A stretch of 64,000 nucleotides of DNA from a phage. Where the stretch lies: sequence record PV636258.1; one strand, written 5' to 3'. The number at the start of each line of letters is the position of its first letter. The stretch's first letter is position 1. The position numbers were made by a program, and so were the translations under genes. Below the pieces are notes generated by a model. It was not told where the DNA came from, ran no database searches, and saw only the letters and a list, made by a program, of their open reading frames with translations. Below, piece by piece: positions 42,304-63,834 of the stretch.

Positions 42304-42307
42304 AATA

Positions 42308-44748: not shown

Positions 44749-44753
44749 AATAG

Positions 44754-46253: not shown

Positions 46254-46279
46254 CACTAATTTCCCCCAATATTATGGAG

Positions 46280-47484: not shown

Positions 47485-47522
47485 GATTTATTCCCTGCTG
47501 TTTCAACTCTCTGTATTATAAC

Positions 47523-48020: not shown

Positions 48021-48083
48021 GTTAGCACCTTTGCTGTGGAGAACGTTTTAGTGTTCCTGATACGCGGATTCAGAAAATGGATC

Positions 48084-48704: not shown

Positions 48705-49433
48705 TTATTTCAGGGACTCTTTTAATTCTGGAGTCCCTATTTTATCAATAACGCCTCCAGCACAGAGATCTTTGGCCCATTCTCCAAGAACATTCGCAAA
48801 AGAGAAGTTTAGACATTCTTTGATCATACTTTCAATATGAGCAAGTTCTGCAGCTATCCCATCGGTGATATCGTTTATAACTCCATTGACGGCGGTTATT
48901 GCCTCATTGATATGTCCTGTTACTTCAGCAGCCAATTGCTGTAGTTTTGCCATACCTTCTGAGGCACCTTCCATAATCATGTCATACAATTCCGATATCT
49001 TGTTAGTCACAGTCTGGAGAGCGCCTTCCATAGCGTTTAACCATTGGCGGCCTAGATCCTGAACAACACCGAATGCTTTGTTGATCAGGTCACAATTGTT
49101 TGGTTCCCGTGATATACTTTTCAAACCTGATTTATATGAAACGGAAGTCCCAATTCTTGAATACGCTTCATTTATGCTCTGGTCGCCATATGTGTTCAGT
49201 GTCGTTATCCCCGTGTTGGCAGAGCTATACATGTTTGTGGCTGCTGTAAGTTTATCTGGTGTTAATCCACCTGCTGACATAGCCAACTGCATTTCCGGAG
49301 TCGCGTTGGCAGTTATCAATGGTATATTGGTACTACCACTGGTGATTAAATCCTGTGAGGGACCGGAGAGGGACGGAAGCGGGTTGCTAAATGCGTTACC
49401 AGAGGAAAGGACATCGTAGATTTGTGCGTTCAT
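48705..49433 (-). CDS. hypothetical protein (242 aa), late gene
   Basis: ATG 49433 preceded by TATAAATACCCCC embedded in 26-nt palindrome. Confidence 0.6.
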   Translation of the reverse strand: MNAQIYDVLSSGNAFSNPLPSLSGPSQDLITSGSTNIPLITANATPEMQLAMSAGGLTPDKLTAATNMYSSANTGITTLNTYGDQSINEAYSRIGTSVSYKSGLKSISREPNNCDLINKAFGVVQDLGRQWLNAMEGALQTVTNKISELYDMIMEGASEGMAKLQQLAAEVTGHINEAITAVNGVINDITDGIAAELAHIESMIKECLNFSFANVLGEWAKDLCAGGVIDKIGTPELKESLK

Positions 49434-49455
49434 AAAATACCCCCAATTTTGGGGG

Positions 49456-49463
49456 TATTTATA
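49456..49463 (-). promoter_or_regulatory. T4-type late promoter box TATAAATA within perfect palindrome 49435..49460
   Basis: minus strand TATAAATACCCCCAAAATTGGGGGTATTT, 22 nt upstream of ATG 49433. Confidence 0.5.
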
Positions 49464-49464
49464 A

Positions 49465-49635
49465 TCATGGAAGATGATAGATAAAATTCTCGCAGAACTT
49501 TTTGGTGTATTTCTTTAGAAATATAAATTTAGGTTCGCGTGGTGTATTTTTCAGATCATTTAGTGTGATATAACTGATTCGCGCCAGAAAGTACATGGTA
49601 AAAGCGACGCAAAGAATCAAAATTAATTGCAGCAT
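49465..49635 (-). CDS. small membrane protein (56 aa)
   Basis: hydrophobic helix LILILCVAFTMYFLA; GGAG SD; TATAAATA box at 49667..49674. Confidence 0.45.
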   Translation of the reverse strand: MLQLILILCVAFTMYFLARISYITLNDLKNTPREPKFIFLKKYTKKFCENFIYHLP

Positions 49636-49666
49636 AGCTAACTCCATATGGGTGTGAAGGCAAACA

Positions 49667-49674
49667 TATTTATA
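49667..49674 (-). promoter_or_regulatory. late promoter box TATAAATA
   Basis: exact T4 late consensus on minus strand upstream of small membrane ORF. Confidence 0.45.
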
Positions 49675-50092
49675 ACAATCGTTTGGTTTTGGGTTTGCCC
49701 ATGAGAGTGATATTGACATTGACTCCTGCTTTTTTCATGCGGGTAATCATGTCTTGCGTCCCAGTAGACGAACCATCCCATAACGCAATTCCAAAGACCT
49801 CAAGACCTTTTTGTTTGGCCAGGGTTGTAGCTTTGTCTAACATATCTTTGTTACGTTGGTTTCCTGCGCCTTTCCCATATATCGTGTGATAATCCTTAGG
49901 GATCCCCATTGGCGTAACATGGACATAATTGATTTCACACCAATCACGAGATATCAAGTCCACACCAACCGCTTCACCTTCTATAAAAGTTTCGATCTCG
50001 TGGGGATCTAACAGTTCATCCAGTTTGGCGAAGATTTTATCCCGCTCGGTTATTGAGCGGGAACCTGTAATGAGCACGACATATTTCTTCAT
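49670..50092 (-). CDS. SLOG/DprA-like (DUF2493-type) protein
   Basis: YVVLITGSR and WDGSSTGT motifs. Confidence 0.45.
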   Translation of the reverse strand: MKKYVVLITGSRSITERDKIFAKLDELLDPHEIETFIEGEAVGVDLISRDWCEINYVHVTPMGIPKDYHTIYGKGAGNQRNKDMLDKATTLAKQKGLEVFGIALWDGSSTGTQDMITRMKKAGVNVNITLMGKPKTKRLL

Positions 50093-50097
50093 AGAAC

Positions 50098-50415
50098 TCA
50101 CAGCGCCCCAAGATTGCCGATGACATAAAGGGAGCACAGGGGAGTCCCTGACGAGCGGGGTTCGATTGTCATCCCACTCAGGCGGATCAGTTCCAGCAAG
50201 CCGTCGGTGGTCTGATACGCACGAGTCGAACCGTTTGGACGATATAGCTCCAACTCGGTTCGCCCTTCCTTTAATGCGTTACGGATGCGTGTGAATACGC
50301 TGTGGGCTTGATATTTTTGACGTAGAATATCTAAACGGGTGATGAGATTTCGACTGCGGCTGCGACGCCCCTTTGAAGAAACAACTAATTTCATTTCTGG
50401 TGTTTTACAAGCCAT
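50098..50415 (-). CDS. hypothetical basic protein (105 aa)
   Basis: ATG 50415. Confidence 0.5.
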   Translation of the reverse strand: MACKTPEMKLVVSSKGRRSRSRNLITRLDILRQKYQAHSVFTRIRNALKEGRTELELYRPNGSTRAYQTTDGLLELIRLSGMTIEPRSSGTPLCSLYVIGNLGAL

Positions 50416-50483
50416 GTTATAGTCCTCTATTTGTAGGGGTTGGGTATGATTTTAACATACCCGTTCAAATGGTTTAGAACAAA

Positions 50484-50948
50484 TTACAGATCTTGGCACT
50501 GATCGCAATATTCGTCGTATGTGAATGTCTCATCACACAGGCCATCACGCATCATATCGGCCTTGGCTTCGCCAAACATTTTCAGGGTGATAACGTTGCC
50601 GTCTAAATCTTTACGAAGTTCGTTCGGCTTGGTTTCTATGAAGTCGAACACCACAAAGAACCCTTCGGTGACATATTTGATGGTTTTGTTGCTCAGCTTA
50701 CGGATGCCACCATTCTTTTTGAAGATAGAGGTGCGGAGGTTTTCGAATTCAGCCAGATTGTCATCGTGATTCTTGATGGCGTTCAGCATTGCGTCAAGGT
50801 CGATTTCAGGACGAAGCATTTTGACCTGATCTTCGCGGTCATAAGAAGTGAAAGATTCTATGTTGGTGATGCCCAGAGCGTTTTTAACAAACGCGTCAAA
50901 TTTGGTGAAATTGTTGAATGCCCAGACGGAGATTTTTACGGTTGTCAT
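50484..50948 (-). CDS. hypothetical protein (154 aa)
   Basis: ATG 50948 downstream of early promoter. Confidence 0.55.
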   Translation of the reverse strand: MTTVKISVWAFNNFTKFDAFVKNALGITNIESFTSYDREDQVKMLRPEIDLDAMLNAIKNHDDNLAEFENLRTSIFKKNGGIRKLSNKTIKYVTEGFFVVFDFIETKPNELRKDLDGNVITLKMFGEAKADMMRDGLCDETFTYDEYCDQCQDL

Positions 50949-50997
50949 GATGTAGATCCTTCATTTCAGAGTCAGTGTTGTGCTGCTTATGGAATGA

Positions 50998-51025
50998 AGT
51001 ATACGGGGTTTATTGAAGAAGTAAA
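50998..51025 (-). promoter_or_regulatory. sigma70-like early promoter TTTACTtcttcaataa...TATACT
   Basis: minus strand TTTACTtcttcaataaaccccgTATACT overlapping hairpin 51004..51030. Confidence 0.5.
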
Positions 51026-51051
51026 CCCCGTTTATTGAATAAATTTTAAAT

Positions 51052-51306
51052 TTATTTGAAGCGATCAGGAAGAGTGTCGTGAACCTCAGCGCTCAGCACC
51101 AGGAACTTGCCGTCTTTAGTAGGGAAGCAGTAGTCTTTCTTGATGTGGCGCATGTGTTCAGCCGTAGCCGCTACACAGTCGTTAGTCACGTCGGTCTTCT
51201 CACCTACCCACATACTGGTTTTGGTATTCAATGTACCTTGGAAGATAGTGCCCGTCAACGGGCTTGCTCCAATCTTTTTGATTCTCATAATTTCTCCCAA
51301 GTCCAT
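51052..51306 (-). CDS. hypothetical protein (84 aa)
   Basis: ATG 51306 with AAGG SD. Confidence 0.45.
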   Translation of the reverse strand: MDLGEIMRIKKIGASPLTGTIFQGTLNTKTSMWVGEKTDVTNDCVAATAEHMRHIKKDYCFPTKDGKFLVLSAEVHDTLPDRFK

Positions 51307-51659
51307 GTTTGCGCCTTGGCTTTTCCGACTACTGGAACGTTACGGTGCATGTTTCTGAAGCTGCCTGTCTGATAAAAACAGATCCTGATGCGTTCATTTT
51401 CGGTATGCTGTGCCCAAACATGATGACCGTCTGGGTATGGGTCGTGACCAGCGCTACCTCCTTGTAGAGCTGTTTTGGTAACGACATAATGCCCTTGCAT
51501 GTAACCGAAGAATCCCTCAGGGGTGATATAACCAGAGTCCGTTTGCCAATCTCCCTTGCAATTAGAATACAAGAAATGCTTAGGCACCTGAGTTTCAATG
51601 GTCATTTCTTCTGTGAGAACGAACACATCGCCGACTTGAAGCAGTGGTAAATTGCTCAT
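51285..51659 (-). CDS. hypothetical protein (124 aa)
   Basis: ATG 51659 with GAGAG SD. Confidence 0.5.
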   Translation of the reverse strand: MSNLPLLQVGDVFVLTEEMTIETQVPKHFLYSNCKGDWQTDSGYITPEGFFGYMQGHYVVTKTALQGGSAGHDPYPDGHHVWAQHTENERIRICFYQTGSFRNMHRNVPVVGKAKAQTWTWEKL

Positions 51660-51670
51660 ATATTAATCTC

Positions 51671-52117
51671 TCACATGTTGCTGATTTTAAATAAAGTCGG
51701 AACATAGCACGGGTGTTGTTCACAGGACATGAAGGTATCAAAACGGGAACCTTTAACCAAGCCAGGCAGTTCGCCTTTCTTCAGGAGATCACGCACTAAC
51801 TCTTGCGTGTCATACCAACTTTTTGCCGGATTGGATTGGACTTCTGAAACTCGGATTTTCAACTCCCCAGTCGAATAATATTTACCGCTTTCCTTCATAT
51901 AATAAAGGTTGACGGTCAGATATTGAGGAGAATCTATTTCTTCCCAACCGTTATCAACCAAGTCTTGGCGGTCATTGTCGTGACTTTGATAATCAATGCC
52001 ACCGCTGGCCAATTTATAGCATTTGAAAATGCGAAAACCTTCGATAGGTGTATCGATGTCGCTACGAAAAAACTGGGAACGTCCTGGACTAATAAAGATA
52101 TAATTTTGTTTAGACAT
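51671..52117 (-). CDS. hypothetical protein (148 aa)
   Basis: ATG 52117 with GAGAG SD. Confidence 0.55.
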   Translation of the reverse strand: MSKQNYIFISPGRSQFFRSDIDTPIEGFRIFKCYKLASGGIDYQSHDNDRQDLVDNGWEEIDSPQYLTVNLYYMKESGKYYSTGELKIRVSEVQSNPAKSWYDTQELVRDLLKKGELPGLVKGSRFDTFMSCEQHPCYVPTLFKISNM

Positions 52118-52132
52118 GATGTAGTTCTCTCT

Positions 52133-52366
52133 TCAAAGTGATAAATGGTTGCATGAGTCTTCTTGACTTGCCAACTCCCAACGAATGATCGTGCCGTCCA
52201 TTTGGGTTATGTCGCAATTCAAATTACTTCCTGGGAGATAAAGGTCTGGCTTCAGATAATATCTCGTTTCACCGTCTTCAAATATTTTTTGAGCCGTGAA
52301 AACTTCGATTTTAGATTCCAAATAGTTCTTATCCAGATATATCTTACGGATTAGAGTCGGCATCAT
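52133..52366 (-). CDS. hypothetical protein (about 77 aa)
   Basis: ATG pair at 52366/52363; N-terminal part of track ORF overlaps neighbouring gene. Confidence 0.4.
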   Translation of the reverse strand: MMPTLIRKIYLDKNYLESKIEVFTAQKIFEDGETRYYLKPDLYLPGSNLNCDITQMDGTIIRWELASQEDSCNHLSL

Positions 52367-52538
52367 CCCACCCCCATTCGTCTTCCCAAGCCTGACGTGG
52401 AGTTTTGCCAGATTCATAATCTTCACGCCAAGCATCTGCATCAGCGGCAGAACCATGTTGAGAACGGGCAACGCGCTCTAATTCGGTATGCCATTCTGCA
52501 AAGTTGGAGTTTTCATTGTTAAGAGTTTCTTTTGCCAT
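52344..52538 (-). CDS. small acidic Trp-rich protein (64 aa)
   Basis: ATG 52538 with AGGAAT SD. Confidence 0.4.
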   Translation of the reverse strand: MAKETLNNENSNFAEWHTELERVARSQHGSAADADAWREDYESGKTPRQAWEDEWGWDDADSNP

Positions 52539-52599
52539 GAGTTGTATTCCTATTGTGAAAGTTGGGTAATGATGGTTCATTACCCATTTATTGAAAATA

Positions 52600-52914
52600 T
52601 TAACAATTATCTTTAGACTCGTTTTCACAATTTGGGTGATAAAACGTTCCCAGTTTAGTATGGATGACGTCCATGTGGGCATTGATTCTATCGATGATAT
52701 CGTCCTGCTCTCCTTGTATGTTAAGGATAGCACCAACAAGACCTGGATTGTGTGTTGATTTTTCTTCAGAATCAGATTCGGGAAATTCACCATCTAATTG
52801 TCGACGAATATTGATCACATTAGTAAGGATGTCAAAAAGACGTTCTTTTTGGGTGCGGGAATTAATGAGGATTTGTGACACGGATTGTTCAGAGGTAATA
52901 TTTCGGGTTGTCAT
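52600..52914 (-). CDS. hypothetical protein (104 aa)
   Basis: ATG 52914 with AGGAG SD. Confidence 0.5.
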   Translation of the reverse strand: MTTRNITSEQSVSQILINSRTQKERLFDILTNVINIRRQLDGEFPESDSEEKSTHNPGLVGAILNIQGEQDDIIDRINAHMDVIHTKLGTFYHPNCENESKDNC

Positions 52915-53001
52915 GACTGATACTCCTGTTGTAAGAAAGTTATATCGTACAACAGGAATTGTTATTGAACTATTCGCGTATTAAATCGTTACGATAAACA
53001 A

Positions 53002-53238
53002 TCACGTATTTTGAGAAACATATTTCAGATATGCGTATTTGTAACCTTCCTCGGTGAGTACACACAGATGTGTATCTCGACCTTTTGGTACGTTTTTAAC
53101 ATCAACTCGTTTACAAAACCCCAGGGATGCCAATTCGGCTTCTCCAGATTTAGCAGGTATTTCCCCAGCTTCACGAGGTCCAAACCAGAAAAGAACGAAT
53201 AGAGTATCGATGGCACCGCCGGATAATTGATGAGACAT
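53002..53238 (-). CDS. hypothetical protein (78 aa)
   Basis: ATG 53238 with AAGGAGG SD, just downstream of gp23 terminator. Confidence 0.5.
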   Translation of the reverse strand: MSHQLSGGAIDTLFVLFWFGPREAGEIPAKSGEAELASLGFCKRVDVKNVPKGRDTHLCVLTEEGYKYAYLKYVSQNT

Positions 53239-53284
53239 TTTAACCTCCTTTGATAAATGAGGCTTTATTATCTTACATATCCCT

Positions 53285-53311
53285 ATAAAGAAAAACCCCG
53301 CCGAAGCGGGG
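53285..53311 (-). terminator. rho-independent terminator after major capsid gene
   Basis: hairpin ccccgc-cgaa-gcgggg followed by TTTTTCTTT on minus strand; identical hairpin recurs at 59652..59667. Confidence 0.65.
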
Positions 53312-53332
53312 TTTGTTATCAAAACCTGTCGA

Positions 53333-54655
53333 TTAGAACAGAGATTTGATCAGACCTTTGCGGAAATACGGGTTGCTGTCTTGAGCAATACCGTCAGCAG
53401 TCACGTAAACCTGCGGGTCTTGGTTCGCCGGAATCTGTACGAACGGGTTAGCACAGATGCCGTAACGGGTTTTGAACGCCATACGCGGAGCGAAGGTGGT
53501 TTCACCCTGGGTGCGGTACATTTCCAGCGGCACATACGGCGCGAAGAAGATACCAGCATCCAGCGCAGTTGCGCCTTTGTATGCCAGAGTGATATATTCT
53601 GCTACAGCATACGGGTCAACATAGACGCGCATACCGTTGGACAGAACACCAGCGAAGGTCTGGCCAGTCGGGTCAACAGCCAGTTTAGTGTTTTCCTGCA
53701 GAACCGGAGCATAGTCCAGCATGCCAGACATCGCCAGAGCGGATGCCACGTTCGGAGAACACAGAACACGGTTGCCTTTACCACGACGGGTGTCAACACC
53801 GATACCGTTCGCTTCAACTTCCAGCATGAAAGTCAGGAACTTCCATTTTTCCAGCGCCCAACGACCGGAGATGTCCTGCGCGATATCAACAACACCGTTG
53901 GTACCGAATTTTTTGAAGCGAACAGCACTGAAGTTCATGGTACGGATGAATTCACGGTTCATTTCCGCCTGAATTTCAGTTACCATCACGTCAGACAGGA
54001 TATTATCCACGTCTTCGCCGTGAATCGCCATCATGTCCTGACGCAGTTCGTGGCTGTAATCAGCGTACAGGCCGCGAGACTTGGCAGTAACGGTCGCTTT
54101 CTGAACAGTGATACCAACACGCGCCCAAGGGTTGGTGGTAGTACCCAGCAGTTCAGCGTCACTTGACGGCATACCTTTACCGATAGTGGTCACGCCAGAG
54201 CCAGAACCTTCGATTTCAGCCTGACTAAAGCCAGACGGGTCGCCAGCCTGTACAGTACCATCACCGGAATAGCCGGAATCGGCTTCCTGCATGAACAGTT
54301 CTTTACGAGACTGTGCGGTGTTGGAACTGTCGCCAACGCCCTGGCGAGCGCGCAGTGCAAAGATCTGACCGTCAGGACCAGACAGCGGCTGAACACCGAA
54401 GAAGTCCATCGCGATGTTGATCGGCGCCAGACGTTTTGCCATGTCGATCAGAACTGGCTGCCATTTACCGACAGTGCTGTTCACAGAACCAGGTGCGTCA
54501 GATTCGCCCAGGTTTTTTGCGTTCCATTCAGCCTGGTTCTGCATCAGACGGATGGTTACGTTTTCGACAGACAGAGGTTGAATAGCTTCAGATTCTTTTT
54601 GGAGAACTGGCAGCCACTGTTTGCGCATTTCTTCGGTTACAAGTTTCTTAGTCAT
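53333..54655 (-). CDS. 23: major capsid protein (gp23-like)
   Basis: FFGVQPLSGPDGQIFALRAR and KTRYGICANPF blocks parallel T4 gp23; AAGGAA SD. Confidence 0.92.
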   Translation of the reverse strand: MTKKLVTEEMRKQWLPVLQKESEAIQPLSVENVTIRLMQNQAEWNAKNLGESDAPGSVNSTVGKWQPVLIDMAKRLAPINIAMDFFGVQPLSGPDGQIFALRARQGVGDSSNTAQSRKELFMQEADSGYSGDGTVQAGDPSGFSQAEIEGSGSGVTTIGKGMPSSDAELLGTTTNPWARVGITVQKATVTAKSRGLYADYSHELRQDMMAIHGEDVDNILSDVMVTEIQAEMNREFIRTMNFSAVRFKKFGTNGVVDIAQDISGRWALEKWKFLTFMLEVEANGIGVDTRRGKGNRVLCSPNVASALAMSGMLDYAPVLQENTKLAVDPTGQTFAGVLSNGMRVYVDPYAVAEYITLAYKGATALDAGIFFAPYVPLEMYRTQGETTFAPRMAFKTRYGICANPFVQIPANQDPQVYVTADGIAQDSNPYFRKGLIKSLF

Positions 54656-54746
54656 GATGCTCGTTCCTTACATTGATATTCAGTTAAGTTGAAATTACTT
54701 AGTAGTTCAAAATCAAGCCCCCTTTCGAGGGCTGTGGCTGCTAAAA

Positions 54747-55586
54747 TTAGCCGTTCAGCAAAGCACTGATCTGGCGACGGACGGCTTCGTTGACTTCTTT
54801 GCCAACTTCGTCTTTGTCATCATCGTCATCGTCATCATCGTCGGCTTCACCTTCTTTCTTCGGTTTTTTACCTTCTTTGATGTCTTTTTCAGACTTGTCG
54901 CCATCCGGCTTGCCTTTTTCATTGTCTTTGCCGACTTTATCAGAGAAGTCATCTTTGCCTTCTACCAGGTTACGGAAGGTGCGCACACGGGATTCAAATT
55001 CAGACTCGGTCTGGAATTCAATACCTTCCAGCAGGTTGACAACAGTGTCTTTCTTGGTGTCAACCATACCTTCACAAATACGATCAATGACATCATTGCG
55101 CTGGCGTTTGGTTTCACTTTCTTTGAGCTGAGCCAATTCAGTATTGGCAATGCTGGCGCGTTTCTCTGCTTCAGCCAGGCGGTTGGTGAGAGCTGCAATC
55201 TGACCGTCTGGGTCAGTGGCGAAACTAACACCTGCTTCTTTCAGAACATTAGAGAAACCAGTGAGGAAGCGTTCAGCAGCTTCGGTTTTGATCTGAGCGT
55301 CAATAGCTGGGGCATTTTTGTTAGCCCATTCTTCAACAACCGCGTTGAGGAACGAATCAACTTTTTCCGCCAACTGAAGAGTGAAATTTTCTTTAAGGTC
55401 TGCGACTTCTTTCTGGTGAGCTTCTACCAGAGTCAGGCGCTCAACGTTACCAGCCGCTTCAGTTTCTTGAATAGCTTGCAGACGGGCGGCTTCAACTTTA
55501 GATTCCAGCAGACCAGATACTTTGTCCAAGAAATCGGTGCTGAGGCCATTAACGCCTTCAAACAGTTTTTGCAATTCAGGTTTCAT
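54747..55586 (-). CDS. 22: prohead scaffold protein (gp22-like)
   Basis: alpha-helical, acidic C-terminal poly-Asp run; position between gp21 and gp23; CTAAATAC box 28 nt upstream. Confidence 0.8.
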   Translation of the reverse strand: MKPELQKLFEGVNGLSTDFLDKVSGLLESKVEAARLQAIQETEAAGNVERLTLVEAHQKEVADLKENFTLQLAEKVDSFLNAVVEEWANKNAPAIDAQIKTEAAERFLTGFSNVLKEAGVSFATDPDGQIAALTNRLAEAEKRASIANTELAQLKESETKRQRNDVIDRICEGMVDTKKDTVVNLLEGIEFQTESEFESRVRTFRNLVEGKDDFSDKVGKDNEKGKPDGDKSEKDIKEGKKPKKEGEADDDDDDDDDKDEVGKEVNEAVRRQISALLNG

Positions 55587-55614
55587 GATAGTTTCCTTCT
55601 GAACGATTTTTCAG

Positions 55615-55621
55615 TATTTAG
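55615..55621 (-). promoter_or_regulatory. late-promoter-like box CTAAATA upstream of gp22
   Basis: minus strand cactaaatactg, 28 nt before ATG 55586. Confidence 0.45.
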
Positions 55622-55632
55622 TGAGCTGAATT

Positions 55633-56301
55633 TCAGCCCAGATGATTCAATGCTGCATCAAGGCGGCGCAGGAAGTCGTCTTCTACTTGAATATTGGCTT
55701 TCACCAACTGATCAACAACGTTTCCTTTAACATCCCGAGGCATCCAAATACCAGAAGCCTCATCAAGCTGCCATTCAACAGATTCACTCACAGCCTTAAC
55801 ATAACAAACTTGTCCAGAAGGACGGTCGACTGCATCAACAGCGGTGAGCATAAAGCCAGGCTGAACGTCATCATAACCGTTTACTGACTTGGTCTCACCC
55901 AGGCCACGTGTAGACACGGCCAGATTGAAGTCTGCTTCAGCCAATGCACGTATGATTTGGCCTTTTGGTGTATTTAAAATTCGCGCCCGACCGATGGCAT
56001 TAGTGCCTTCCCAGCGAAGGGATTCGGTTTTGAGCGCTGCTTCCACCAGATTAGGGAAAGGATAGTCAGGATGTGTGACTTCACCGATTGCGCGACGATC
56101 TTGGATATACTCTTTGTCGTATGCTTCGACAGCAGGAATACCCACTTTCTGCAGATCATAGTTACGCCCGTTACGGTTGACTTGGTTACACATCACAAAC
56201 GGACCTTCGATGAACATGGCCTTCCCACCAGTTGAGGTTGTGGCCTCACCGATTTGAAGATCCTTCCCTATCGCTGTGATCTCACGCAACAGTTTCATCA
56301 T
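55633..56301 (-). CDS. 21: prohead protease (gp21-like)
   Basis: size and position as T4 gp21; GEVTHPDYP and catalytic-type Ser/His regions; AAGGAG SD. Confidence 0.85.
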   Translation of the reverse strand: MMKLLREITAIGKDLQIGEATTSTGGKAMFIEGPFVMCNQVNRNGRNYDLQKVGIPAVEAYDKEYIQDRRAIGEVTHPDYPFPNLVEAALKTESLRWEGTNAIGRARILNTPKGQIIRALAEADFNLAVSTRGLGETKSVNGYDDVQPGFMLTAVDAVDRPSGQVCYVKAVSESVEWQLDEASGIWMPRDVKGNVVDQLVKANIQVEDDFLRRLDAALNHLG

Positions 56302-56308
56302 AAACTCC

Positions 56309-56626
56309 TTACTTGTTCTTACTCAGTCCCATCATTTTGCGGAACTTCATAGCCTTTTTCTTACGACGCTCGATTTTACGTTGATAGCCCATTCCCATAC
56401 GCTTTTTAGAGCGGAGGGCTTTGCGGTTGCCGATCTTGCGAACACGACGTTCGCTGGCATCCATGACTTCACAACGTGAACCATCAGCCGACAATTTGAA
56501 CCCAGGGGCACATTTCAGACGGCGGCGGCGTTTACCACGAGCGTTCACTTTATCGATGACTCGCTGCTCGTCCATACGAGAGGCCAGGAAATCAGCGAAC
56601 GTGGCGATCTCTGTGATTTCCATCAT
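56309..56626 (-). CDS. prohead core protein-like (very basic C-terminus)
   Basis: position between portal and protease as T4 gp67/gp68; Arg/Lys-rich tail; AAGGAG SD. Confidence 0.45.
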   Translation of the reverse strand: MMEITEIATFADFLASRMDEQRVIDKVNARGKRRRRLKCAPGFKLSADGSRCEVMDASERRVRKIGNRKALRSKKRMGMGYQRKIERRKKKAMKFRKMMGLSKNK

Positions 56627-56634
56627 GCATCTCC

Positions 56635-56805
56635 TTACTGGCCGTTGTTGTTTGAATTCATATCAGCTGCGATAGAATCCAGAACATATGCTGTGCCTTG
56701 GTTTAATAGTTCTTGACTACGTGCATCAAGTTCCATGTTGCATTCTGCAACAGCAGTTTCAGTGTCACCGTCAATTACTGCACGAACGATATCAATTGCG
56801 CTCAT
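56635..56805 (-). CDS. small acidic protein (56 aa), possible prohead core component
   Basis: ORF below track cutoff found by hand: ATG 56805 with GGAGAT SD and CTAAATAT box 27 nt upstream. Confidence 0.35.
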   Translation of the reverse strand: MSAIDIVRAVIDGDTETAVAECNMELDARSQELLNQGTAYVLDSIAADMNSNNNGQ

Positions 56806-56832
56806 GATTTTGATCTCCGAATTAATTTTCTA

Positions 56833-56839
56833 TATTTAG
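56833..56839 (-). promoter_or_regulatory. late-promoter-like box CTAAATA
   Basis: minus strand aactaaatatag immediately after portal stop. Confidence 0.4.
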
Positions 56840-56846
56840 TTGAACT

Positions 56847-58529
56847 TTAAATACTATCGTCTGTTGAACCGGAGAATGGGATAGTCTCAGGTTTAAACTT
56901 CAACGGACTAACATCTGAACCGCTATAATTGCCAGTTTCATCTGCTTGAACCTTCGGATAGAGACCTTTCTTCTTCTCTTCCGCGATCTTCGTTTGTTGT
57001 TCTTTAACTTCTTCATCAGACATACGCAATACATTTCTCATGACGTAGTCTATGGAGAAAATGGAACCAACGAATGGCTCAACAGTGTTCAATGAAGCCA
57101 GACGATCATTCAAGATAGCGTTTTCTTGTTGTTCACGAATGTAACTATCTGATGTGAATTCAAACTTTATAAACGGTTTGATCTTCTCATTCCAATCCTT
57201 TTCATCCGTAACGCCTTTCAAAATTAACTGGCGGCGCAAGAATTCCATAAAGAAATGGGAGTAACGGCGTCGTAACCCAGCACAGAACTTGCTGAAGCGC
57301 AGCTCTTCCTGTGTAATCTCCGCAAGGTTAGAACCCCCAATGTTAATGGAACCTTCTTCCTGAAGACGGCTCTTGGGGATCATCAGTGCATCATAGAGTT
57401 TTTCACGGAAATAATTCACATGGTCCATTTCACCCAATTGATTCCCACCACCAACAGTTGCAATTTCTGTGGCGTTTTGGCCTTCACGACGAGGCAACCA
57501 ATAATCTTCTGCAATCCCCATGAGGTGGGCGTTGCCTGTAATTTTACCAGTGGTCCTGTCGTATGCATTACGGTTTTTGAATTTACCCATCATCATAGTC
57601 ATGTATTCTTCAGCAGATTTCTTGCCGAGAGTACCGACGTCGAGATAGAATGCGCGTTTCTCGGGGGCACGAGTGATGGCATAAATTACTGTTGCGTCTT
57701 CAGTCGTAACCAAGTTGTTCAACGGACGGATTGCAGGATTTAAAAGCCCTGGGACAATACCGTTAGCCAATGGTTCTTCACCACTATCGATATAAACGAT
57801 ACTTTCATCATCAAACACGAGTTCTTGTTGTGAAGGTTGGAAGTTTTGAGAAGTACCTGATTGACCAGTGAATTGATTCCGGTTGTAATTCGGATTGTAA
57901 TAGTATTTCAGCGTTACAGATTCGATCGCTTCTATACCACCTTCACGCATTGCCTTTTCAACGATGTACACAGGACGAATACAACGAGAATCCAGCATGA
58001 CCAATTTCTTGATCCCACCCTTCTTATTCGTTGGGTCAACAATCACATGATACGCTTGTCGACCATCTACATACCATTTCCGAATTTTTTGATACGCCGT
58101 ATTTTCAAAATCCATCAAATGAATCACTTCTTTGAAACATTCGGTGATAGATTCTTTGACTGATTCAGAAATACCATCAACTTTGTCAAGATTGACTGTC
58201 ACCGGAGTTTCGTCTTCCTCACATGTGACAACGTCATTAACAATGATGTCCACAGCTTTGCGTATTTCTGGCTGCTGGGCCATGGACTGATATTCTTCCA
58301 CAACTGTTTTAACGCTGAGAAGTTCACTCTCAACGCCAACATAGTTGTAGGTGTTTGCACCGCCCTGAAGGATTATAGAACCGTCTTGAGCATCGTCCAG
58401 AGCAACAACTGTCGCCTTGGTGAGCAACAATTCATCTTGTTTTTGGGCTAACTTATCGGTGTCGACTTTGGCATTGACTAAACCGCCGCCACCAAACAAA
58501 CCGAAGAACCCTCTGCCGTATCCAGCCAT
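56847..58529 (-). CDS. 20: portal vertex protein (gp20-like)
   Basis: 560 aa; position upstream of prohead core/protease/scaffold/capsid; GAGGAC SD. Confidence 0.88.
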   Translation of the reverse strand: MAGYGRGFFGLFGGGGLVNAKVDTDKLAQKQDELLLTKATVVALDDAQDGSIILQGGANTYNYVGVESELLSVKTVVEEYQSMAQQPEIRKAVDIIVNDVVTCEEDETPVTVNLDKVDGISESVKESITECFKEVIHLMDFENTAYQKIRKWYVDGRQAYHVIVDPTNKKGGIKKLVMLDSRCIRPVYIVEKAMREGGIEAIESVTLKYYYNPNYNRNQFTGQSGTSQNFQPSQQELVFDDESIVYIDSGEEPLANGIVPGLLNPAIRPLNNLVTTEDATVIYAITRAPEKRAFYLDVGTLGKKSAEEYMTMMMGKFKNRNAYDRTTGKITGNAHLMGIAEDYWLPRREGQNATEIATVGGGNQLGEMDHVNYFREKLYDALMIPKSRLQEEGSINIGGSNLAEITQEELRFSKFCAGLRRRYSHFFMEFLRRQLILKGVTDEKDWNEKIKPFIKFEFTSDSYIREQQENAILNDRLASLNTVEPFVGSIFSIDYVMRNVLRMSDEEVKEQQTKIAEEKKKGLYPKVQADETGNYSGSDVSPLKFKPETIPFSGSTDDSI

Positions 58530-58596
58530 GATCTAAGTCCTCAACATTTTCTTGTAATTAGTGAGGGGGAATAACATTCCCCCAGCACCGAGGACA

Positions 58597-59130
58597 TTAC
58601 AATGACTTGTCAGAAACGGCTTGGAAATAACGCAAGTCGACAGTGAACTGTGTGTAAGAGTCCATTGCCGACATATCGAGTTCCAGTTGGCCGAGGTTTT
58701 GAGGCCAGCCGCCCTGTAAAGTCCATGTCTTAGTCACGTTGTCATTCGCGTCCAGAAGTTCCATGATGATATCACGGAAATAATCATCTGGATTCGCGCT
58801 GGCGCGGTTGTTTTCACTACCGTTGATGAATTGCTGCCACACTTCAAAAGCATTGTATGGAGCGTTGTTCACCACGTTAATGAACGTCACAGGAAGCGCT
58901 TCGAAACGACGATCCCCTGGGAACGGAAGTTCACGACCACCCCAGGGCACCAGAATTTCGCCCAGCTGACCTGTTGGGGTGTTGGTGGTTACAGCCAGCA
59001 AGGACACGTCACGAATTGTGTCGGAACCAGCAACAAAAGAAGGAAAGTTTACAGTCACACGCCAGCGGTGTTGGCGTTGTACGCCGCCCCCTCGTGACAT
59101 GGCTGCGCGAAACTCATTGACTGTCGCCAT
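58597..59130 (-). CDS. 19: tail tube protein (gp19-like)
   Basis: 177 aa immediately downstream of sheath gene region; GGAGAT SD. Confidence 0.8.
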   Translation of the reverse strand: MATVNEFRAAMSRGGGVQRQHRWRVTVNFPSFVAGSDTIRDVSLLAVTTNTPTGQLGEILVPWGGRELPFPGDRRFEALPVTFINVVNNAPYNAFEVWQQFINGSENNRASANPDDYFRDIIMELLDANDNVTKTWTLQGGWPQNLGQLELDMSAMDSYTQFTVDLRYFQAVSDKSL

Positions 59131-59160
59131 TTTTATATCTCCAAATAAGAGTACACAATT

Positions 59161-59619
59161 CTAATTAGTCGTCAATCTTTTAATCTTCATGGAAGAAAAA
59201 TCAAATCCGTGGTCAACATTGCTTAAAACGGGTTCGATTTCACACAATTCCCAACGGGGATCTATGAGAGAAACAAGACCAATGTGTTCACCTGTGGATG
59301 TCAATTTTGCTGCAGTTTTACCCAGCATATGACTTCCATCATTACCGCCTTTATTCATGTTGTAACCCATCTCATAAGAATTATATTGAGCGATGAGTTG
59401 CTTCTCTAATTCCCATTTATGGACTTCATCGGTCTGAGCAATTACAACGAAAGTAAATCCAGATGTTCCATACTTACGCATAGCATCATACAATTCACTT
59501 TGGACTCCATGATGAAAAGCATTCGCAAAATGCTGATCATATCTTCGTTGTGGGTGATTGGTCACACCGATGTAGACCTTTCCATTAGTTATCGTTTCAA
59601 TTTTGTATGCGTATATCAT
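59161..59619 (-). CDS. GIY-YIG homing endonuclease (free-standing, between genes 18 and 19)
   Basis: N-terminal IYAYKIETITNGKVYIGVT...RRYDQH GIY-YIG motif. Confidence 0.8.
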   Translation of the reverse strand: MIYAYKIETITNGKVYIGVTNHPQRRYDQHFANAFHHGVQSELYDAMRKYGTSGFTFVVIAQTDEVHKWELEKQLIAQYNSYEMGYNMNKGGNDGSHMLGKTAAKLTSTGEHIGLVSLIDPRWELCEIEPVLSNVDHGFDFSSMKIKRLTTN

Positions 59620-59640
59620 TCAATAACTCAAATCAATAAG

Positions 59641-59667
59641 ACAAAGGAAAACCCCGCCGAAGCGGGG
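59641..59667 (-). terminator. rho-independent terminator after tail sheath gene
   Basis: hairpin ccccgc-cgaa-gcgggg followed by TTTTCCTTTG on minus strand. Confidence 0.65.
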
Positions 59668-59675
59668 TTGGTCAT

Positions 59676-61571
59676 TTATGAAGCAGCAACGATGCCGCCA
59701 CCGGATTCGATTTCCGAGAATTCCATGTCCGGACGAACGGCAGCAAAGTCAAGATACACCCAATTTATGCTGTATTCCGGTTTCAACCAAATGCCTGCAA
59801 CCATTTGGTTTGCCGCAATGACATCAGCAGTGTTGTTGTCTTCATCACATTTGACTTTACCATCGTAAATCGCGCCCATATTTGCCAGCTGGCGAATATA
59901 TGGACGAACCGCATTGCTGAACAGACCACGTGTAAACGCGTCATTGTTCTCACCAAGATAGTATTTGGCGATTGCGGCGATGTTCTGCTCAGCCATGATG
60001 AACAGACCACGAACGTTGATGCGGTCAAACGCCGACGGGCGGGTCAAGCCAGTTTTGTCACCATACAGGACGATGCCTTCATTGGAGAAGGTTACGATGC
60101 TGTTGATCTGATTGCGGTACAACACAGCACGTTCATCAGAAGACGCGGACCACGCCATTCGATTATAGTTGTTGTATTTACCACGGTTGTGGAACGCCGG
60201 AGATTTGTAGATACCCGCGATTTCAATGCTTCGCGCCCAAACACCTGCGGTGCCACCACAAGCCGGAATCCAACGCATTTTGTCGTTGTACTTGTCGTAC
60301 ACGTATGCCCAGTTATCATCCATGAAGAAATAAGAAGAGTCGCGAACAAGGCTTTCACGCCAAGCAACGACATCATCCATTTCACGACCACGGTTGCCAA
60401 CAACCGTATCACGGAGCGGGGATACGAAAGATACGGTATCTTTTCGCTCAGTAGATAAGTCGATCAATGCTTGTTGCTCAATCAGTTCTTCACAGTACGC
60501 AAATACTGGCTTCGCATCATATGCTTCAGCGTTGTTCAAGACTTGGATAGCTGCCACGCGGTTGATGTTATAATCGTCTACGCCGCCTTCTAATTCAACG
60601 ACACCTGCTACCAGTTCACTCGCGAAGGTATACACCCAATTTGAAGTATCGTTGATCACGTCTTTGAAGTACGCATTCGCACCATCGGATTTTTTAGAAC
60701 CCTGGGTATTCTGCATCAGTTCGTATTTTTCAATGATGGAACCAGAAGCGCCAACAGTAGTGATTACGGCTGTTGCAGTCAGTCCTTTATCATCAGGAAC
60801 GATAGCTGTAACGGCCTGAGGACCGATAGCTTTATGGGTCACGATGACAGTGTTGGACTTCACGACAACAGAAGAATAAACACTTGTCAGGGAAGTCAGC
60901 GCTGTACCGATTTTGGTTGCCAAAGTGGCTGGAGTATCAGTATCCAGATATGCGATATCTTCACCCGCCACACTGATGGTGCCAGCAGCAGTAGCCGTAC
61001 CAGAAACGGAGATACGGTCAACCTGACCGACCGCGCCAGCAGAGTCGGTAATGCGACCAACTTTGTCTACGACAACTACATGGAATTCACCAGACTGAGG
61101 TGCGTATGCAAAGTTATTACGGAATTCCCAAGTCGAGAACCCAGCAGCATCACAAACATTGATAGCAATATCATTGCCCAGGGAACCTGGATAACGACCA
61201 GTCCAAGTGATGGACGCCGAAGGACTTGCTGTTTCAAAATCCAGTTTGTTTTTGATCGCAATCGCTGTCTGACCTTTGGTAACAGAGTTCTTGGCTAGAG
61301 GACCAACAACACGGGTCACCCATGCCATAGAGCTGTAAGACAAAAAGTCCGCGATTACGAGAAAATCGGTCGCAGTACTGTCGTTGGGTTTGAAGAATTT
61401 CTTCACCAAACCTGTCTCACCACCAGTCACCAGCACTGGAAGTTCAACTTCACCCCATTGAAATTTGCCGACGGTCGCGCCCTGAACAACAACGGACGGA
61501 GACGTCTGAAGCGTGGCATCACGCTCAGTCCACTGAACGGACGGCGCAACGCTGAAGCTTTGAGTTGCCAT
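59676..61571 (-). CDS. 18: tail sheath protein (gp18-like)
   Basis: 631 aa; ATG 61571 with GAAGGAA SD; track start is non-ATG; CTAAATAT box upstream. Confidence 0.9.
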   Translation of the reverse strand: MATQSFSVAPSVQWTERDATLQTSPSVVVQGATVGKFQWGEVELPVLVTGGETGLVKKFFKPNDSTATDFLVIADFLSYSSMAWVTRVVGPLAKNSVTKGQTAIAIKNKLDFETASPSASITWTGRYPGSLGNDIAINVCDAAGFSTWEFRNNFAYAPQSGEFHVVVVDKVGRITDSAGAVGQVDRISVSGTATAAGTISVAGEDIAYLDTDTPATLATKIGTALTSLTSVYSSVVVKSNTVIVTHKAIGPQAVTAIVPDDKGLTATAVITTVGASGSIIEKYELMQNTQGSKKSDGANAYFKDVINDTSNWVYTFASELVAGVVELEGGVDDYNINRVAAIQVLNNAEAYDAKPVFAYCEELIEQQALIDLSTERKDTVSFVSPLRDTVVGNRGREMDDVVAWRESLVRDSSYFFMDDNWAYVYDKYNDKMRWIPACGGTAGVWARSIEIAGIYKSPAFHNRGKYNNYNRMAWSASSDERAVLYRNQINSIVTFSNEGIVLYGDKTGLTRPSAFDRINVRGLFIMAEQNIAAIAKYYLGENNDAFTRGLFSNAVRPYIRQLANMGAIYDGKVKCDEDNNTADVIAANQMVAGIWLKPEYSINWVYLDFAAVRPDMEFSEIESGGGIVAAS

Positions 61572-61613
61572 AATATCATTCCTTCTCGGTAGAGTTTCGC
61601 TCAATTTGAAAGA

Positions 61614-61620
61614 TATTTAG
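61614..61620 (-). promoter_or_regulatory. late-promoter-like box CTAAATA upstream of gp18
   Basis: minus strand cactaaatatc between terminase stop and sheath start. Confidence 0.45.
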
Positions 61621-61623
61621 TGA

Positions 61624-63834
61624 TCAATTCTTAAACCACTCATCCATGGTCATCCCTGACATTTCGTTGAAAACTTGAATACCCCCGAAACCAGGCAAAT
61701 GCTCAGTTTCGGATGGGGTGTCTCCAACGACTAAACCGCCAAATGGGAATACCTGCTGAGATTCAGTTGAAGACATTCGGTTTCTCATGTCCTGAGAAAT
61801 ACTTGTAGACGTCAAGTCACTGAACCATTCTTGTTTTACCGCCCATGAATATAAGACCAACGGCATGACACAGTCATCGTGACAACCGTCATCGGCTTCA
61901 TACCGAGCGCCTTTGAACACAAATGTACTGAGTTCATCTATCGTGTCCTGGTCTTCTATCACCAACATTTCTTTCTCAATGAGCGCTTTCAAGTTAGCAC
62001 AACCGATAGATCGGACTTTTCTGTTGGTATTGATACCAGGTTCCGGTTTACGCCCACCAATCCGTTTCCCCGTCCCTTTGTTATCTGTTGATGTGAATAT
62101 GATTTCTGGATATTCTATCTCTTGATAAAGAATTGTAATAACCTGACCGCCGACGTCGTTGTTTGTTTCAACAAGGACAGGACATTCCCCGTATTCGGTG
62201 CACATATCAGCTATCGTGTATGCATACATCATAGGAGGTATCGTATTATTCCTGTACTTGGCTGCTATGACATGCGGATATTCAGTTATATCCAGAATTG
62301 TTAAGACGGAATAATCTCCTTCCACTCCCTTCCCAGTGTCCGCAATCCCAAAGTAGAGACGTTGTGGGTCGTATTCCTTATAAATCTTGGTGAATTCATT
62401 AGGTTCCCGATACAACTTGGACGTCATTTTATCTAAGCATTTGGCCGGAATCAATGAACCCACGGAACCACGGAACTTAATGCCAAATTCTTGATCGAAA
62501 CGAGCATCCCCCAGACGGGCACGTTGTTTGGTTTCCCAATCTGGATCTTTGGTATATGCCGGAACCTTATACCATGGGACTTCAGTTAGGTGGAAGTCGT
62601 TGTATTGTGGATGGCGTGGATCTGCTTTGGTGACAATATCATAGAACAACCCTCGCTGGCCTTTCGGAGTACTTGTCAAAATACAGCGTGATGTATCGGC
62701 AGATGCAATGGCTGGGAAAGTTGATTCCCAAAATTCAAAGTCGTTTTCGATAAACGCGACTTCGTCAACATACAAGAGCGATACAGAACGACCACGGATG
62801 GAGTCCGAAGACGTGGCATAAGCGTATATCTTAGAACCATTCTCAAACTCTATCAGGGTAGAACCAAACTTCTCACAACCCTGCTGAAGGAAGAATGGAA
62901 GGTCTTGGTATGCCTTTCTGATACGATCAAGAATTTCTATCGCTTGTTTCTCTTTGTTTGCCAGTACTGCGATTTCCTTATCAGAATGGAACATCGCGTA
63001 CCAAAGAAGAAACGCCGCCACCACGGTCGTGTTATGACTGAGAAAGCCATTCGTGTAATAACGTTGATCACTAGATTTGACCTGCAGATCGTACATATGG
63101 TGATATTCACCAGTCTGCCAAATCTCACGGATTTCTTCTGGACCTTCTGTCGTCATGATGTATGACCCAGCATTCAGGTCTTTGGCAAATATCTCCTTCA
63201 TGTCCGAAGTGAAGAACATATGTTCATCGGCCACGTTAATTCGCCTTCCGGTAACGGTGACAATAACGAATTCCGCATATTTCTTCGTCTTATGCGCTGC
63301 GATAACCGGAACCCAGCCACTATCGGATTGTACAAAGTAACGTTTGCCGAAGCGGCTGTCCACGAACTTGTCATGGTTGCCAATGGTATTCAGCGGCACA
63401 GCGTGGTTGACGTCCTCGAAGCGGCTGTGAAGCTCCCCTATGGTCAGGAGCAACTCCTCTTGGCTGAGAGTATCGTAAACTGTGACAAGCGTGTCGCCTT
63501 TTACACATTTTCCAGACTGACGAGCCTGGACGACCGCATTAAATCGATAGTCCTGAAAGTCATGGAACAACTGTTTCTGATAATCATGCATATCGAAAAG
63601 GATAAAGCCTTTATCGATCGTGGTTATCTTGTAATAGTTGGCGGCGAAGTAGTGTGCATCCATAGAACATTCAACGAATTCGTCTTCTTGTTCATCTGTC
63701 AGCATTAACTCGACTCGAGGAGCACGCACAGAAGGTTTGCGCATAAACGTTTGGTCCATACGCAATTTCACATCGTCTATTTTGAACCCCGTTTTAATTG
63801 GGGCATATTCTATATCACGCTTCTGATACGCCAT
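61624..63834 (-). CDS. 17: terminase large subunit (gp17-like) interrupted by an in-frame mini-intein
   Basis: 736 aa; Walker A region VVQARQSGK / TT split by insertion; C-terminal nuclease region colinear with T4-type terminases. Confidence 0.9.
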   Translation of the reverse strand: MAYQKRDIEYAPIKTGFKIDDVKLRMDQTFMRKPSVRAPRVELMLTDEQEDEFVECSMDAHYFAANYYKITTIDKGFILFDMHDYQKQLFHDFQDYRFNAVVQARQSGKCVKGDTLVTVYDTLSQEELLLTIGELHSRFEDVNHAVPLNTIGNHDKFVDSRFGKRYFVQSDSGWVPVIAAHKTKKYAEFVIVTVTGRRINVADEHMFFTSDMKEIFAKDLNAGSYIMTTEGPEEIREIWQTGEYHHMYDLQVKSSDQRYYTNGFLSHNTTVVAAFLLWYAMFHSDKEIAVLANKEKQAIEILDRIRKAYQDLPFFLQQGCEKFGSTLIEFENGSKIYAYATSSDSIRGRSVSLLYVDEVAFIENDFEFWESTFPAIASADTSRCILTSTPKGQRGLFYDIVTKADPRHPQYNDFHLTEVPWYKVPAYTKDPDWETKQRARLGDARFDQEFGIKFRGSVGSLIPAKCLDKMTSKLYREPNEFTKIYKEYDPQRLYFGIADTGKGVEGDYSVLTILDITEYPHVIAAKYRNNTIPPMMYAYTIADMCTEYGECPVLVETNNDVGGQVITILYQEIEYPEIIFTSTDNKGTGKRIGGRKPEPGINTNRKVRSIGCANLKALIEKEMLVIEDQDTIDELSTFVFKGARYEADDGCHDDCVMPLVLYSWAVKQEWFSDLTSTSISQDMRNRMSSTESQQVFPFGGLVVGDTPSETEHLPGFGGIQVFNEMSGMTMDEWFKN
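63031..63507 (-). mobile_element. mini-intein (about 159 aa) inserted in terminase P-loop
   Basis: insertion begins CVKGDTLV (Cys1) and ends FLSHN followed by Thr +1; interrupts GK|T of Walker A. Confidence 0.75.

Follow-up and report, generated by a model that had tools for sequence, protein, structure and literature searches.

The spacer between the tail sheath and tail tube genes of this phage is a hotspot for homing endonuclease genes, with at least six occupancy states and fixed breakpoints among related genomes. The window, which is the whole 64,000-nucleotide stretch of DNA analysed here, belongs to a Kuttervirus (Ackermannviridae, ViI-like) and shows 99.9% identity with Salmonella phage vB-SalM-PM10. 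About 170 other Kuttervirus genomes are 90–99% identical to the window, and the Klebsiella Taipeivirus phages are about 81% identical. Its sheath-tube spacer holds a 152-residue GIY-YIG gene, and a 309-residue HNH-type gene occupies a second spacer. We consider it likely that both are free-standing homing endonuclease genes of the T4 Seg/Mob kind lying in short spacers, that the short form of the GIY-YIG enzyme is still functional, and that the intein in the large terminase is a fixed element without an endonuclease. Patchy presence, absence and replacement of both nuclease genes in about 270 relatives indicate that they behave as mobile genes.

Identity of the GIY-YIG gene

The order on the minus strand is large terminase, tail sheath, the 152-residue ORF, tail tube and portal. 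The features of this region are as follows.

61624..63834, minus strand: large terminase gene, carrying a mini-intein
59676..61571, minus strand: tail sheath gene (gp18-like), upstream flank of the GIY-YIG gene (phrog_23, E=1e-113)
59650..59669, minus strand: sheath-gene intrinsic terminator, forming the upstream limit of the insertion spacer (8-bp stem, 6 GC pairs, T tail; terminator scan)
59161..59619, minus strand: free-standing GIY-YIG endonuclease gene, short form, 152 aa (ORF, Pfam PF01541, phrog_5123)
59344..59619, minus strand: GIY-YIG catalytic domain, aa 1–92 (I-TevI alignment, invariant columns, Foldseek)
59152..59168, minus strand: conserved motif CTAATTAGAATTGTGTA ahead of the tube gene, where every cassette has its downstream breakpoint; found in empty as well as occupied alleles
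58597..59130, minus strand: tail tube gene (gp19-like), downstream flank of the GIY-YIG gene (phrog_45, E=6e-57)
56847..58529, minus strand: portal gene

The sheath gene starts at an ATG that gives 631 residues, the same as in relatives. The 152-residue protein matches the Pfam GIY-YIG family PF01541 with E=1e-10 and 42.2 bits (cut-off 22.6) and phrog_5123, ‘homing endonuclease with GIY-YIG motif’, with E=2e-93 over 152 of 152 positions. In the alignment with I-TevI, residues Tyr5, Tyr16, Arg26, His30, Glu72 and Asn87 correspond to Tyr6, Tyr17, Arg27, His31, Glu75 and Asn90, and all six catalytic residues are invariant across relatives. I-TevI alone is matched in a PDB sequence search. The top Foldseek match is also the I-TevI catalytic domain (PDB entry 1LN0), with probability 1.0 and TM 0.70 for a low-confidence AlphaFold model, which was built from nine sequences in the alignment, has a pLDDT of 56.5 and is uninterpretable in its C-terminal half. 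The exact ORF, the Pfam and phrog_5123 matches, the six retained residues and the fold match together confirm the preliminary description, which had placed a GIY-YIG endonuclease with a canonical catalytic motif between the tail sheath and tail tube genes. It had also put both nuclease genes in spacers between conserved genes, and this is what we find: sheath and tube for the one, the 5-hmdU DNA kinase gene and a 672-residue gene for the other. The G+C content of the GIY-YIG gene is 38%, against 49–51% in its flanks.

Occupancy and breakpoints of the sheath-tube spacer

Ag3, EspM4VN and Erwinia phage Bue1 have an empty spacer of about 78 bp. Most Kuttervirus and Taipeivirus genomes, such as Vi01, PhaxI, Marshall, S117, May and XDRKpn-1, carry the 152-residue gene there, and PhaxI has in addition a second gene on the opposite strand for a GIY-YIG-like protein of 262 residues. 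Full-length GIY-YIG genes of 230–243 residues occupy the spacer in KE27, barely, CAU_YEP3 and K5lambda5. Tandem GIY-YIG forms of 225 and 156 residues are found in phiMAM1, and Hef-like genes of about 590 residues lie on the opposite strand in maane and JA15 (F-LimVIII). An ortholog of the 152-residue protein at 80% protein identity or more is present in about 198 records; the sampled orthologs each align as one unbroken match, with the exception of SE14. Mobility of the gene had been expected to look weaker if all relatives carried it at this locus with no empty sites; it holds, with empty sites in Ag3, EspM4VN and Bue1 and other endonuclease genes elsewhere. Among the sampled Kuttervirus records themselves no empty sheath-tube site was seen, and without empty Kuttervirus alleles homing within the genus possibly has no current substrate.

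Both edges of the spacer are well defined. At the upstream edge, the type of sheath terminator co-varies with the type of endonuclease gene among relatives. At the downstream edge, the stop codon of the GIY-YIG gene (59161–59163) falls within the conserved motif CTAATTAGAATTGTGTA. The shared cassette end reads CTAA[A/T]TAGAATTGTGTA(A) and lies about 30 nt ahead of the tube start codon; the form found in both occupied and empty alleles is CTAA[A/T]TAGA. The full-length GIY-YIG genes translate this end motif as their final codons, QLIRIV*, and the 152-residue gene stops inside it. In KE27 and barely the right breakpoint is exactly at the conserved motif, and the first approximately 100 nt of the tube gene are identical across Kutterviruses with different endonuclease genes. 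Because the motif is also found in empty alleles, it is probably a native signal of the tube gene rather than a scar, and the endonuclease ORFs would simply run into it. The Ag3 spacer was considered as a deletion scar, as it keeps CTAATTAGAATTGTGTAA, which corresponds to the last six codons of the full-length gene; this was dropped, since the empty sites of EspM4VN and Bue1 show CTAAATAGA. JA15 retains a longer, genuine remnant of the full-length gene, TTGWQLIRIV*.

Sequence exchange and selection

Different endonuclease genes are found between nearly identical flanks. In the Taipeiviruses XDRKpn-1 and K5lambda5 the sheath and tube genes are 98% identical at the nucleotide level, and the endonuclease genes are only 59% identical. 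The sheath gene of KE27 differs from that of the window by 1.8% mismatches in the first 1840 nt and by 22% in the last 55 nt, and that of barely differs by about 17% over the last 175 sheath positions. The tube genes of the two phages differ from that of the window at 3 (KE27) and 1 (barely) of 534 positions. The sheath 3′ tract exchanged along with the cassette thus covers the last 55–175 nt, and its breakpoints are sharp. Divergence of the sheath 3′ end next to a near-identical tube gene in KE27 and barely indicates that the cassette moved together with the sheath 3′ end and terminator and that the exchange stopped at the conserved motif.

In six divergent Kuttervirus pairs, dS of the 152-residue gene is 0.07–0.13, while that of the portal, sheath and terminase genes is 0.3–1.1, so that synonymous divergence of the GIY-YIG gene is 3- to 10-fold below that of flanking genes. 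Identity to Vi01 peaks at 98–100% at positions 59000–59500 over a background of about 85%. If T4 Seg and Mob are a guide, the enzyme would act during mixed infection and cut, near the spacer, a related phage's allele in which the endonuclease gene is missing. The break would then be repaired by recombination with the genome bearing the endonuclease gene as template, and repair would copy the gene along with a stretch of flanking sequence. The low dS could instead stem from ordinary recombination sweeps or from constraint at the nucleotide level.

The dN/dS ratio of the 152-residue gene is 0.09 at a dS of 1.26 in comparison with the Taipeivirus ortholog and 0.08–0.22 across comparisons. The gene is under purifying selection and shows no decay. 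Purifying selection together with near-fixation in Kuttervirus and Taipeivirus suggests that it still has some function.

The short form and the DPRW module

In the alignment, the 152-residue protein lacks about 80 C-terminal residues of its 225–243-residue relatives. Among the missing residues are a G-x-KN-x-NAKRF stretch and another that weakly resembles an HTH. What short and long forms have in common is the catalytic domain and a strongly conserved segment, STGEHIGLVSLxDPRW...EI. No recognised NUMOD or HTH is detected in the 152-residue protein, and Pfam gives no match past residue 87. The short form most likely arose by deletion of the approximately 80-residue HTH-like C-terminal domain found in same-site relatives, because the longer forms show greater diversity and the architecture typical of GIY-YIG homing enzymes. 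As the 3′ motif is present in empty alleles too, this choice of deletion over acquisition is one of parsimony, not proof. The 152-residue protein is most likely still a low-complexity, site-selective nuclease and would skew the inheritance of the sheath-tube region, and we infer that the short form would be active in homing at present.

Between the catalytic domain and the C-terminus lies one further conserved element.

59230..59322, minus strand: single DPRW module of about 31 aa, aa 100–130, GKTAAKLTSTGEHIGLVSLIDPRWELCEIEP (conservation, repeats in profile matches, local HMM)

The DPRW module is the most conserved part of the 152-residue protein, with the consensus G..AA....TGE.LG.V...DPRW.TGEI. 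In a profile search of 1.84 billion representative proteins, residues 95–137 match repeatedly within single proteins. A local HMM finds the module in 66 of 239 retrieved proteins, 49 of which contain two to seven copies. In these 49 proteins, which are metagenomic, the multi-copy array always follows a nuclease domain, SegE-like GIY-YIG in 30 and HNH in 7, the N-termini of the other 12 being left untyped by a simple motif test. One array protein, on a 363-kb phage-like contig, is encoded on the strand opposite to its neighbours. Among isolated phages, the module occurs in Ackermannviridae endonucleases only and as a single copy. The AlphaFold model of a five-copy protein has a pLDDT of 86, and each module in it forms a β-hairpin, a short helix at DPRW and a short strand. 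No Pfam-A model matched the module, and a literature search for the motif found nothing. The module may allow the short protein to contact DNA, and we regard it as a putative DNA-contact module. A tentative extension, which we hold to be possible though somewhat short of probable, is that DPRW represents an undescribed class of nuclease-associated DNA-binding repeat and that the 152-residue protein would be a minimised, still active homing endonuclease consisting of a catalytic domain and one module.

The HNH locus

The second nuclease gene lies between the 5-hmdU DNA kinase gene and a conserved 672-residue gene. The features of this locus are as follows.

39229..40452: 5-hmdU DNA kinase gene, neighbour of the 309-aa gene
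39167..39201, minus strand: 15-bp RNA hairpin predicted to sequester the Shine-Dalgarno sequence GGAG and the AUG of the HNH gene (MFE −20.4 kcal/mol, z=−6.1)
38240..39169, minus strand: free-standing HNH-type homing endonuclease gene, 309 aa (ORF, phrog_655, phrog_12434)
38969..39067, minus strand: HNH motif region, aa 35–67, E-x-HH-x2-PK ... N ... H-x3-H (near-invariant columns, P0010 alignment)
38705..38764, minus strand: NUMOD3 motif, aa 136–155 (Pfam PF07460, 22.9 bits, cut-off 20.4)
38243..38590, minus strand: C-terminal domain of about 115 aa in common with LIMEstone1 F-LimVI (about 85–90% identity; 81.6% nucleotide match)
38019..38243, minus strand: 74-aa companion ORF in the same insert as the HNH gene (phrog_19743, unknown function)

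The 309-residue protein matches phrog_655, ‘homing endonuclease’, at 8e-64 and phrog_12434, ‘HNH endonuclease’, at 1e-17 (aa 16–92). NUMOD3 is the sole Pfam call on it, and neither Pfam nor NCBIfam calls an HNH motif on the protein itself. Its residues Glu35, His37, His38, Asn54, His63 and His67 align with the homolog P0010, and the aligned stretch of P0010 passes Pfam HNH (PF01844) with 25.7 bits against a cut-off of 21.4. We take the HNH motif to be real because of this alignment and the PHROG match; on the 309-residue protein it is too divergent for Pfam. An HNH endonuclease with a canonical motif had been proposed here, and the ORF, its location and the HNH motif (through PHROGs and P0010) stand, but the word canonical does not, since the motif is below threshold in Pfam. 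A PDB sequence search with the protein returned only spurious SMC matches.

The hairpin over the start of the HNH gene is more stable than expected, with none of 200 shuffled sequences as stable, and it is conserved in STP07. Translational masking by a hairpin over the ribosome-binding site is known for T4 endonuclease genes. Downstream, the start of the 74-residue ORF overlaps the HNH stop codon (ATGA). This ORF accompanies the HNH gene in STP07 and is absent from Vi01, where the site is empty.

Coverage of at least 80% of the HNH region is found in 42 of 270 related records (about 15%). The site is empty in Vi01, which has a 112-bp spacer, and in most Kutterviruses; it holds the same cassette in STP07, a different ORF for a 135-residue zinc-ribbon protein in Mutine, and F-LimVI in LIMEstone1. 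The mobility proposed for the HNH gene agrees with this patchy presence at a fixed site. With a length of about 1.2 kb, the insert contains the HNH gene, the coupled 74-residue ORF and, in a version of its own, the C-terminal tail of the kinase. Its right breakpoint is at TGAATAAAGA, where the Vi01 kinase gene stops. The G+C content of the HNH gene is 41%, against 47–49% in the flanks. No known family was matched by the C-terminal domain of the 309-residue protein. According to Pfam the N-terminus of F-LimVI is GIY-YIG, whereas that of the 309-residue protein is HNH, and comparison of the two proteins indicates that the nuclease domain at this locus was recently exchanged while the C-terminal domain stayed conserved.

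The terminase intein

The large terminase is interrupted in its Walker A motif.

63031..63507, minus strand: mini-intein, 159 aa, Cys110–Asn268, in the Walker A motif of the large terminase (junction residues, Marshall annotation)

The junctions read ARQSGK/CVKGDTLV...VADEH...FLSHN/TTVV (slashes mark the boundaries) and split Walker A, with an N-terminal Cys, the block B His, a C-terminal His-Asn and a +1 Thr. The intein models score below cut-off (Pfam Intein_splicing, 30.5 bits; TIGR01445/01443). The record of phage Marshall annotates identical boundaries, and the intein indicated by the preliminary description is thus present at its place. It is found in 285 phage records and in every Ackermannviridae genus sampled, and the Kuttervirus intein falls into two allele classes, one at 95% identity or more and the other at about 79%. 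We infer that it splices out of the terminase P-loop, because these 285 records retain it within an essential protein. An endonuclease domain is absent from its 159 residues, and no intein-less terminase allele was seen in the sampled records of Ackermannviridae. These two observations suggest that the intein is a fixed passenger.

The HNH gene, the GIY-YIG gene and the intein-bearing terminase together span 38240..63834, about 25.6 kb. The statement that three selfish elements occur within 26 kb is therefore right as to their number and distance, but the intein is selfish by origin only, being fixed and without an endonuclease. No additional homing endonuclease gene was detected in the window beyond the two, using phmmer with 12 homing endonuclease queries and motif regular expressions.

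Alternative roles of the GIY-YIG protein

The 152-residue protein could have been domesticated as a general or modification-dependent nuclease which, like T4 EndoII (DenA), cuts host or competitor DNA without thymidine hypermodification. Its small size and the lack of a recognised DNA-binding domain would fit such a role, as would strong purifying selection with near-fixation in two genera and the presence in the genome of a 5-hmdU DNA kinase, which marks thymidine hypermodification. However, the closest relatives are full-length Seg-like homing endonuclease genes in the same spacer, I-TevI is the best match by both structure and sequence with EndoII not among the top 50 Foldseek matches, the gene is placed behind the sheath terminator in the late structural operon, and its dS is far under that of the flanks. 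We judge a nuclease of this kind unlikely. The best match to I-TevI, together with relatives and a locus of the homing endonuclease kind, led to its rejection as the primary reading. An inactive relic, kept only because its DNA holds signals for tail tube expression, is a still weaker candidate and in our view very improbable. The stop codon inside the conserved motif ahead of the tube gene and the loss of the C-terminal domain of the relatives are what one would expect of it, but dN/dS is not near 1, the catalytic residues are all invariant, the sampled orthologs other than SE14 are unbroken, and phages with an empty site express the tube gene with just the spacer of about 78 bp. The dN/dS values and the intact orthologs also rule out a decaying pseudogene.

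The proximity of the intein raises collaborative homing, in which the GIY-YIG enzyme would act in trans for the endonuclease-less terminase mini-intein about 3.4 kb away. An intein of 159 residues with no endonuclease domain and a nuclease gene less than 4 kb from it are the makings of such an arrangement, but every genus sampled has the intein, Ag3 too, whose spacer lacks a GIY-YIG gene, and no intein-less terminase allele is seen in the family. The co-conversion-like tract is centred on the 5′ end of the tube gene and the endonuclease gene and does not reach toward the terminase. We consider collaboration extremely improbable, as neither Ag3, nor the distribution of the intein, nor the direction of the tract supports it. 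Independent free-standing homing endonuclease genes next to a fixed intein remain our preferred reading.

Implications

Most of these findings match the textbook behaviour of phage homing endonuclease genes. Both elements are known in kind and are already annotated in GenBank and PHROGs: the Vi01 record labels the ortholog of the 152-residue protein ‘GIY-YIG endonuclease’, and the PM10 record labels the 309-residue gene ‘homing endonuclease’. Our literature search returned no biochemical test of cleavage or homing by these enzymes. In Ackermannviridae, a family of therapeutic and biocontrol phages, insertions are naturally tolerated at two places, between the sheath and tube genes and downstream of the 5-hmdU kinase gene, and recombination around both makes the phylogeny of structural genes mosaic. 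Three points are modestly new, namely a short GIY-YIG form that has no recognised DNA-binding domain and is kept by purifying selection, a repeat module common to GIY-YIG and HNH enzymes that lies outside Pfam coverage, and the recent exchange, at a single locus, of the nuclease domain joined to a conserved C-terminal domain. If true, they bear on the minimum size of a site-selective nuclease and on modular nuclease engineering.

Comparison with known systems

T4 SegA–G and I-TevI resemble the 152-residue gene in having an I-TevI-like catalytic domain and in lying free-standing in a spacer between conserved genes, and the T4 Seg genes also in an exchange of flanking sequence like marker exclusion. 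Unlike Seg and I-TevI, the 152-residue form has no recognised NUMOD/HTH C-terminal DNA-binding domain but one uncharacterised DPRW module only. T4 endonuclease II is likewise a small GIY-YIG protein with no separate DNA-binding domain; however, it is not the closest by sequence or fold, and the locus and relatives of the 152-residue gene are of the homing endonuclease kind.

T4 Mob and I-HmuI share with the 309-residue protein an N-terminal HNH motif followed by NUMOD3, but its HNH motif is too divergent for Pfam and it has no PDB sequence match. As is generally known of T4 homing endonuclease genes, the ribosome-binding site and AUG of the HNH gene are masked by a hairpin. Inteins of phage terminase large subunits agree with that of the window in Cys1, the penultimate His-Asn, the +1 Thr and the in-frame position in the ATPase P-loop; the window intein differs in being a 159-residue mini-intein without a homing endonuclease domain, fixed in the sampled Ackermannviridae genera.

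A parallel by locus is LIMEstone1, for which 14 homing endonucleases have been described (PMC3296691). Eleven are free-standing, among them F-LimVI and, next to the tube gene, F-LimVIII. These two are from the same phage family as the window genes and occupy the same two loci, with F-LimVI directly downstream of the 5-hmdU kinase homolog and F-LimVIII between the sheath and tube genes. F-LimVI has a GIY-YIG rather than an HNH N-terminus, and its C-terminal stretch of about 115 residues is near-identical to that of the 309-residue protein. F-LimVIII is Hef-like and lies on the opposite strand, in contrast to the GIY-YIG gene that fills the sheath-tube spacer of the window.

HNH locus and a probable nuclease-domain exchange

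The C-terminal region of about 115 residues in the window HNH protein (38243..38590, minus strand) is nearly identical to that of the GIY-YIG protein F-LimVI of LIMEstone1 (L007, 2486..3271). Downstream of the 5-hmdU kinase gene, the two genes also occupy one and the same site. The near-identical C-terminus together with the common locus points to the nuclease domain having been exchanged recently while the C-terminal domain was conserved. The C-terminal tail of the kinase, encoded by the 3' end of its gene (39229..39330), is not the same in genomes that carry the HNH cassette (...GEGQPKATTSGSKNLLNLFKK*) as in the empty-site phage Vi01, and the cassette appears to have replaced the end of this upstream gene. 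The Shine-Dalgarno sequence and AUG of the HNH gene are buried in a 15-bp hairpin (39167..39201, minus strand; −20.4 kcal/mol, z = −6.1), which is conserved in phage STP07. A small ORF accompanies the HNH gene, with an ATG that overlaps the stop codon of that gene, and is missing from the empty-site genomes:

38019..38243, minus strand: 74-aa ORF, phrog_19743 (function unknown)

GIY-YIG gene in other records

The same GIY-YIG gene as in the window is present in GenBank entry OR844942.1 ('Enterococcus phage Efm 3-10', 111 kb), which is 97.7% identical to the window across the sheath-tube region; this entry appears to be a Kuttervirus record that is either mislabelled or contaminated. In Salmonella phage SE14 (NC_049512.1, 90980..91434), the only sampled row with a split ortholog, the GIY-YIG alignment falls into two pieces across 455 nt, the result either of a frameshift in this copy or of an error in sequencing. 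Serratia phage phiMAM1 (L012, 1822..2971) carries tandem GIY-YIG genes within this same sheath-tube spacer, one full-length (225 aa) and one short (156 aa). The C-terminal end of the short protein (...ELNRIV*) is in frame with the conserved downstream motif, the site upstream of the tube gene where the spacer cassettes end.

Mosaic structural genes and intein alleles

Strong mosaicism is observed in the structural genes (56847..63834) when the window is compared with the corresponding regions of its relatives L016, L019, L020 and L002. S117 has an identical tube gene, yet the sheath gene shows a dS of 0.30. The terminase dS is 0.03 against PhaxI and 1.1 against Vi01. The terminase intein (63031..63507) falls into two allele classes among Kutterviruses, with at least 95% and about 78.6% identity to the window, and few records lie between them.

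DPRW module

The 152-aa GIY-YIG protein contains a single copy of a short module:

59230..59322, minus strand: 'DPRW' module, about 31 aa, G..AA....TGE.LG.V...DPRW.TGEI

No Pfam model covers this module, and a fold search against the PDB gave no match. An AlphaFold prediction folds each copy into a β-hairpin, a short helix and a short strand. Tandem arrays of 2–7 copies are found in 49 metagenomic proteins (P0026, P0030 and P0033 among them), where they are positioned behind GIY-YIG or HNH domains.
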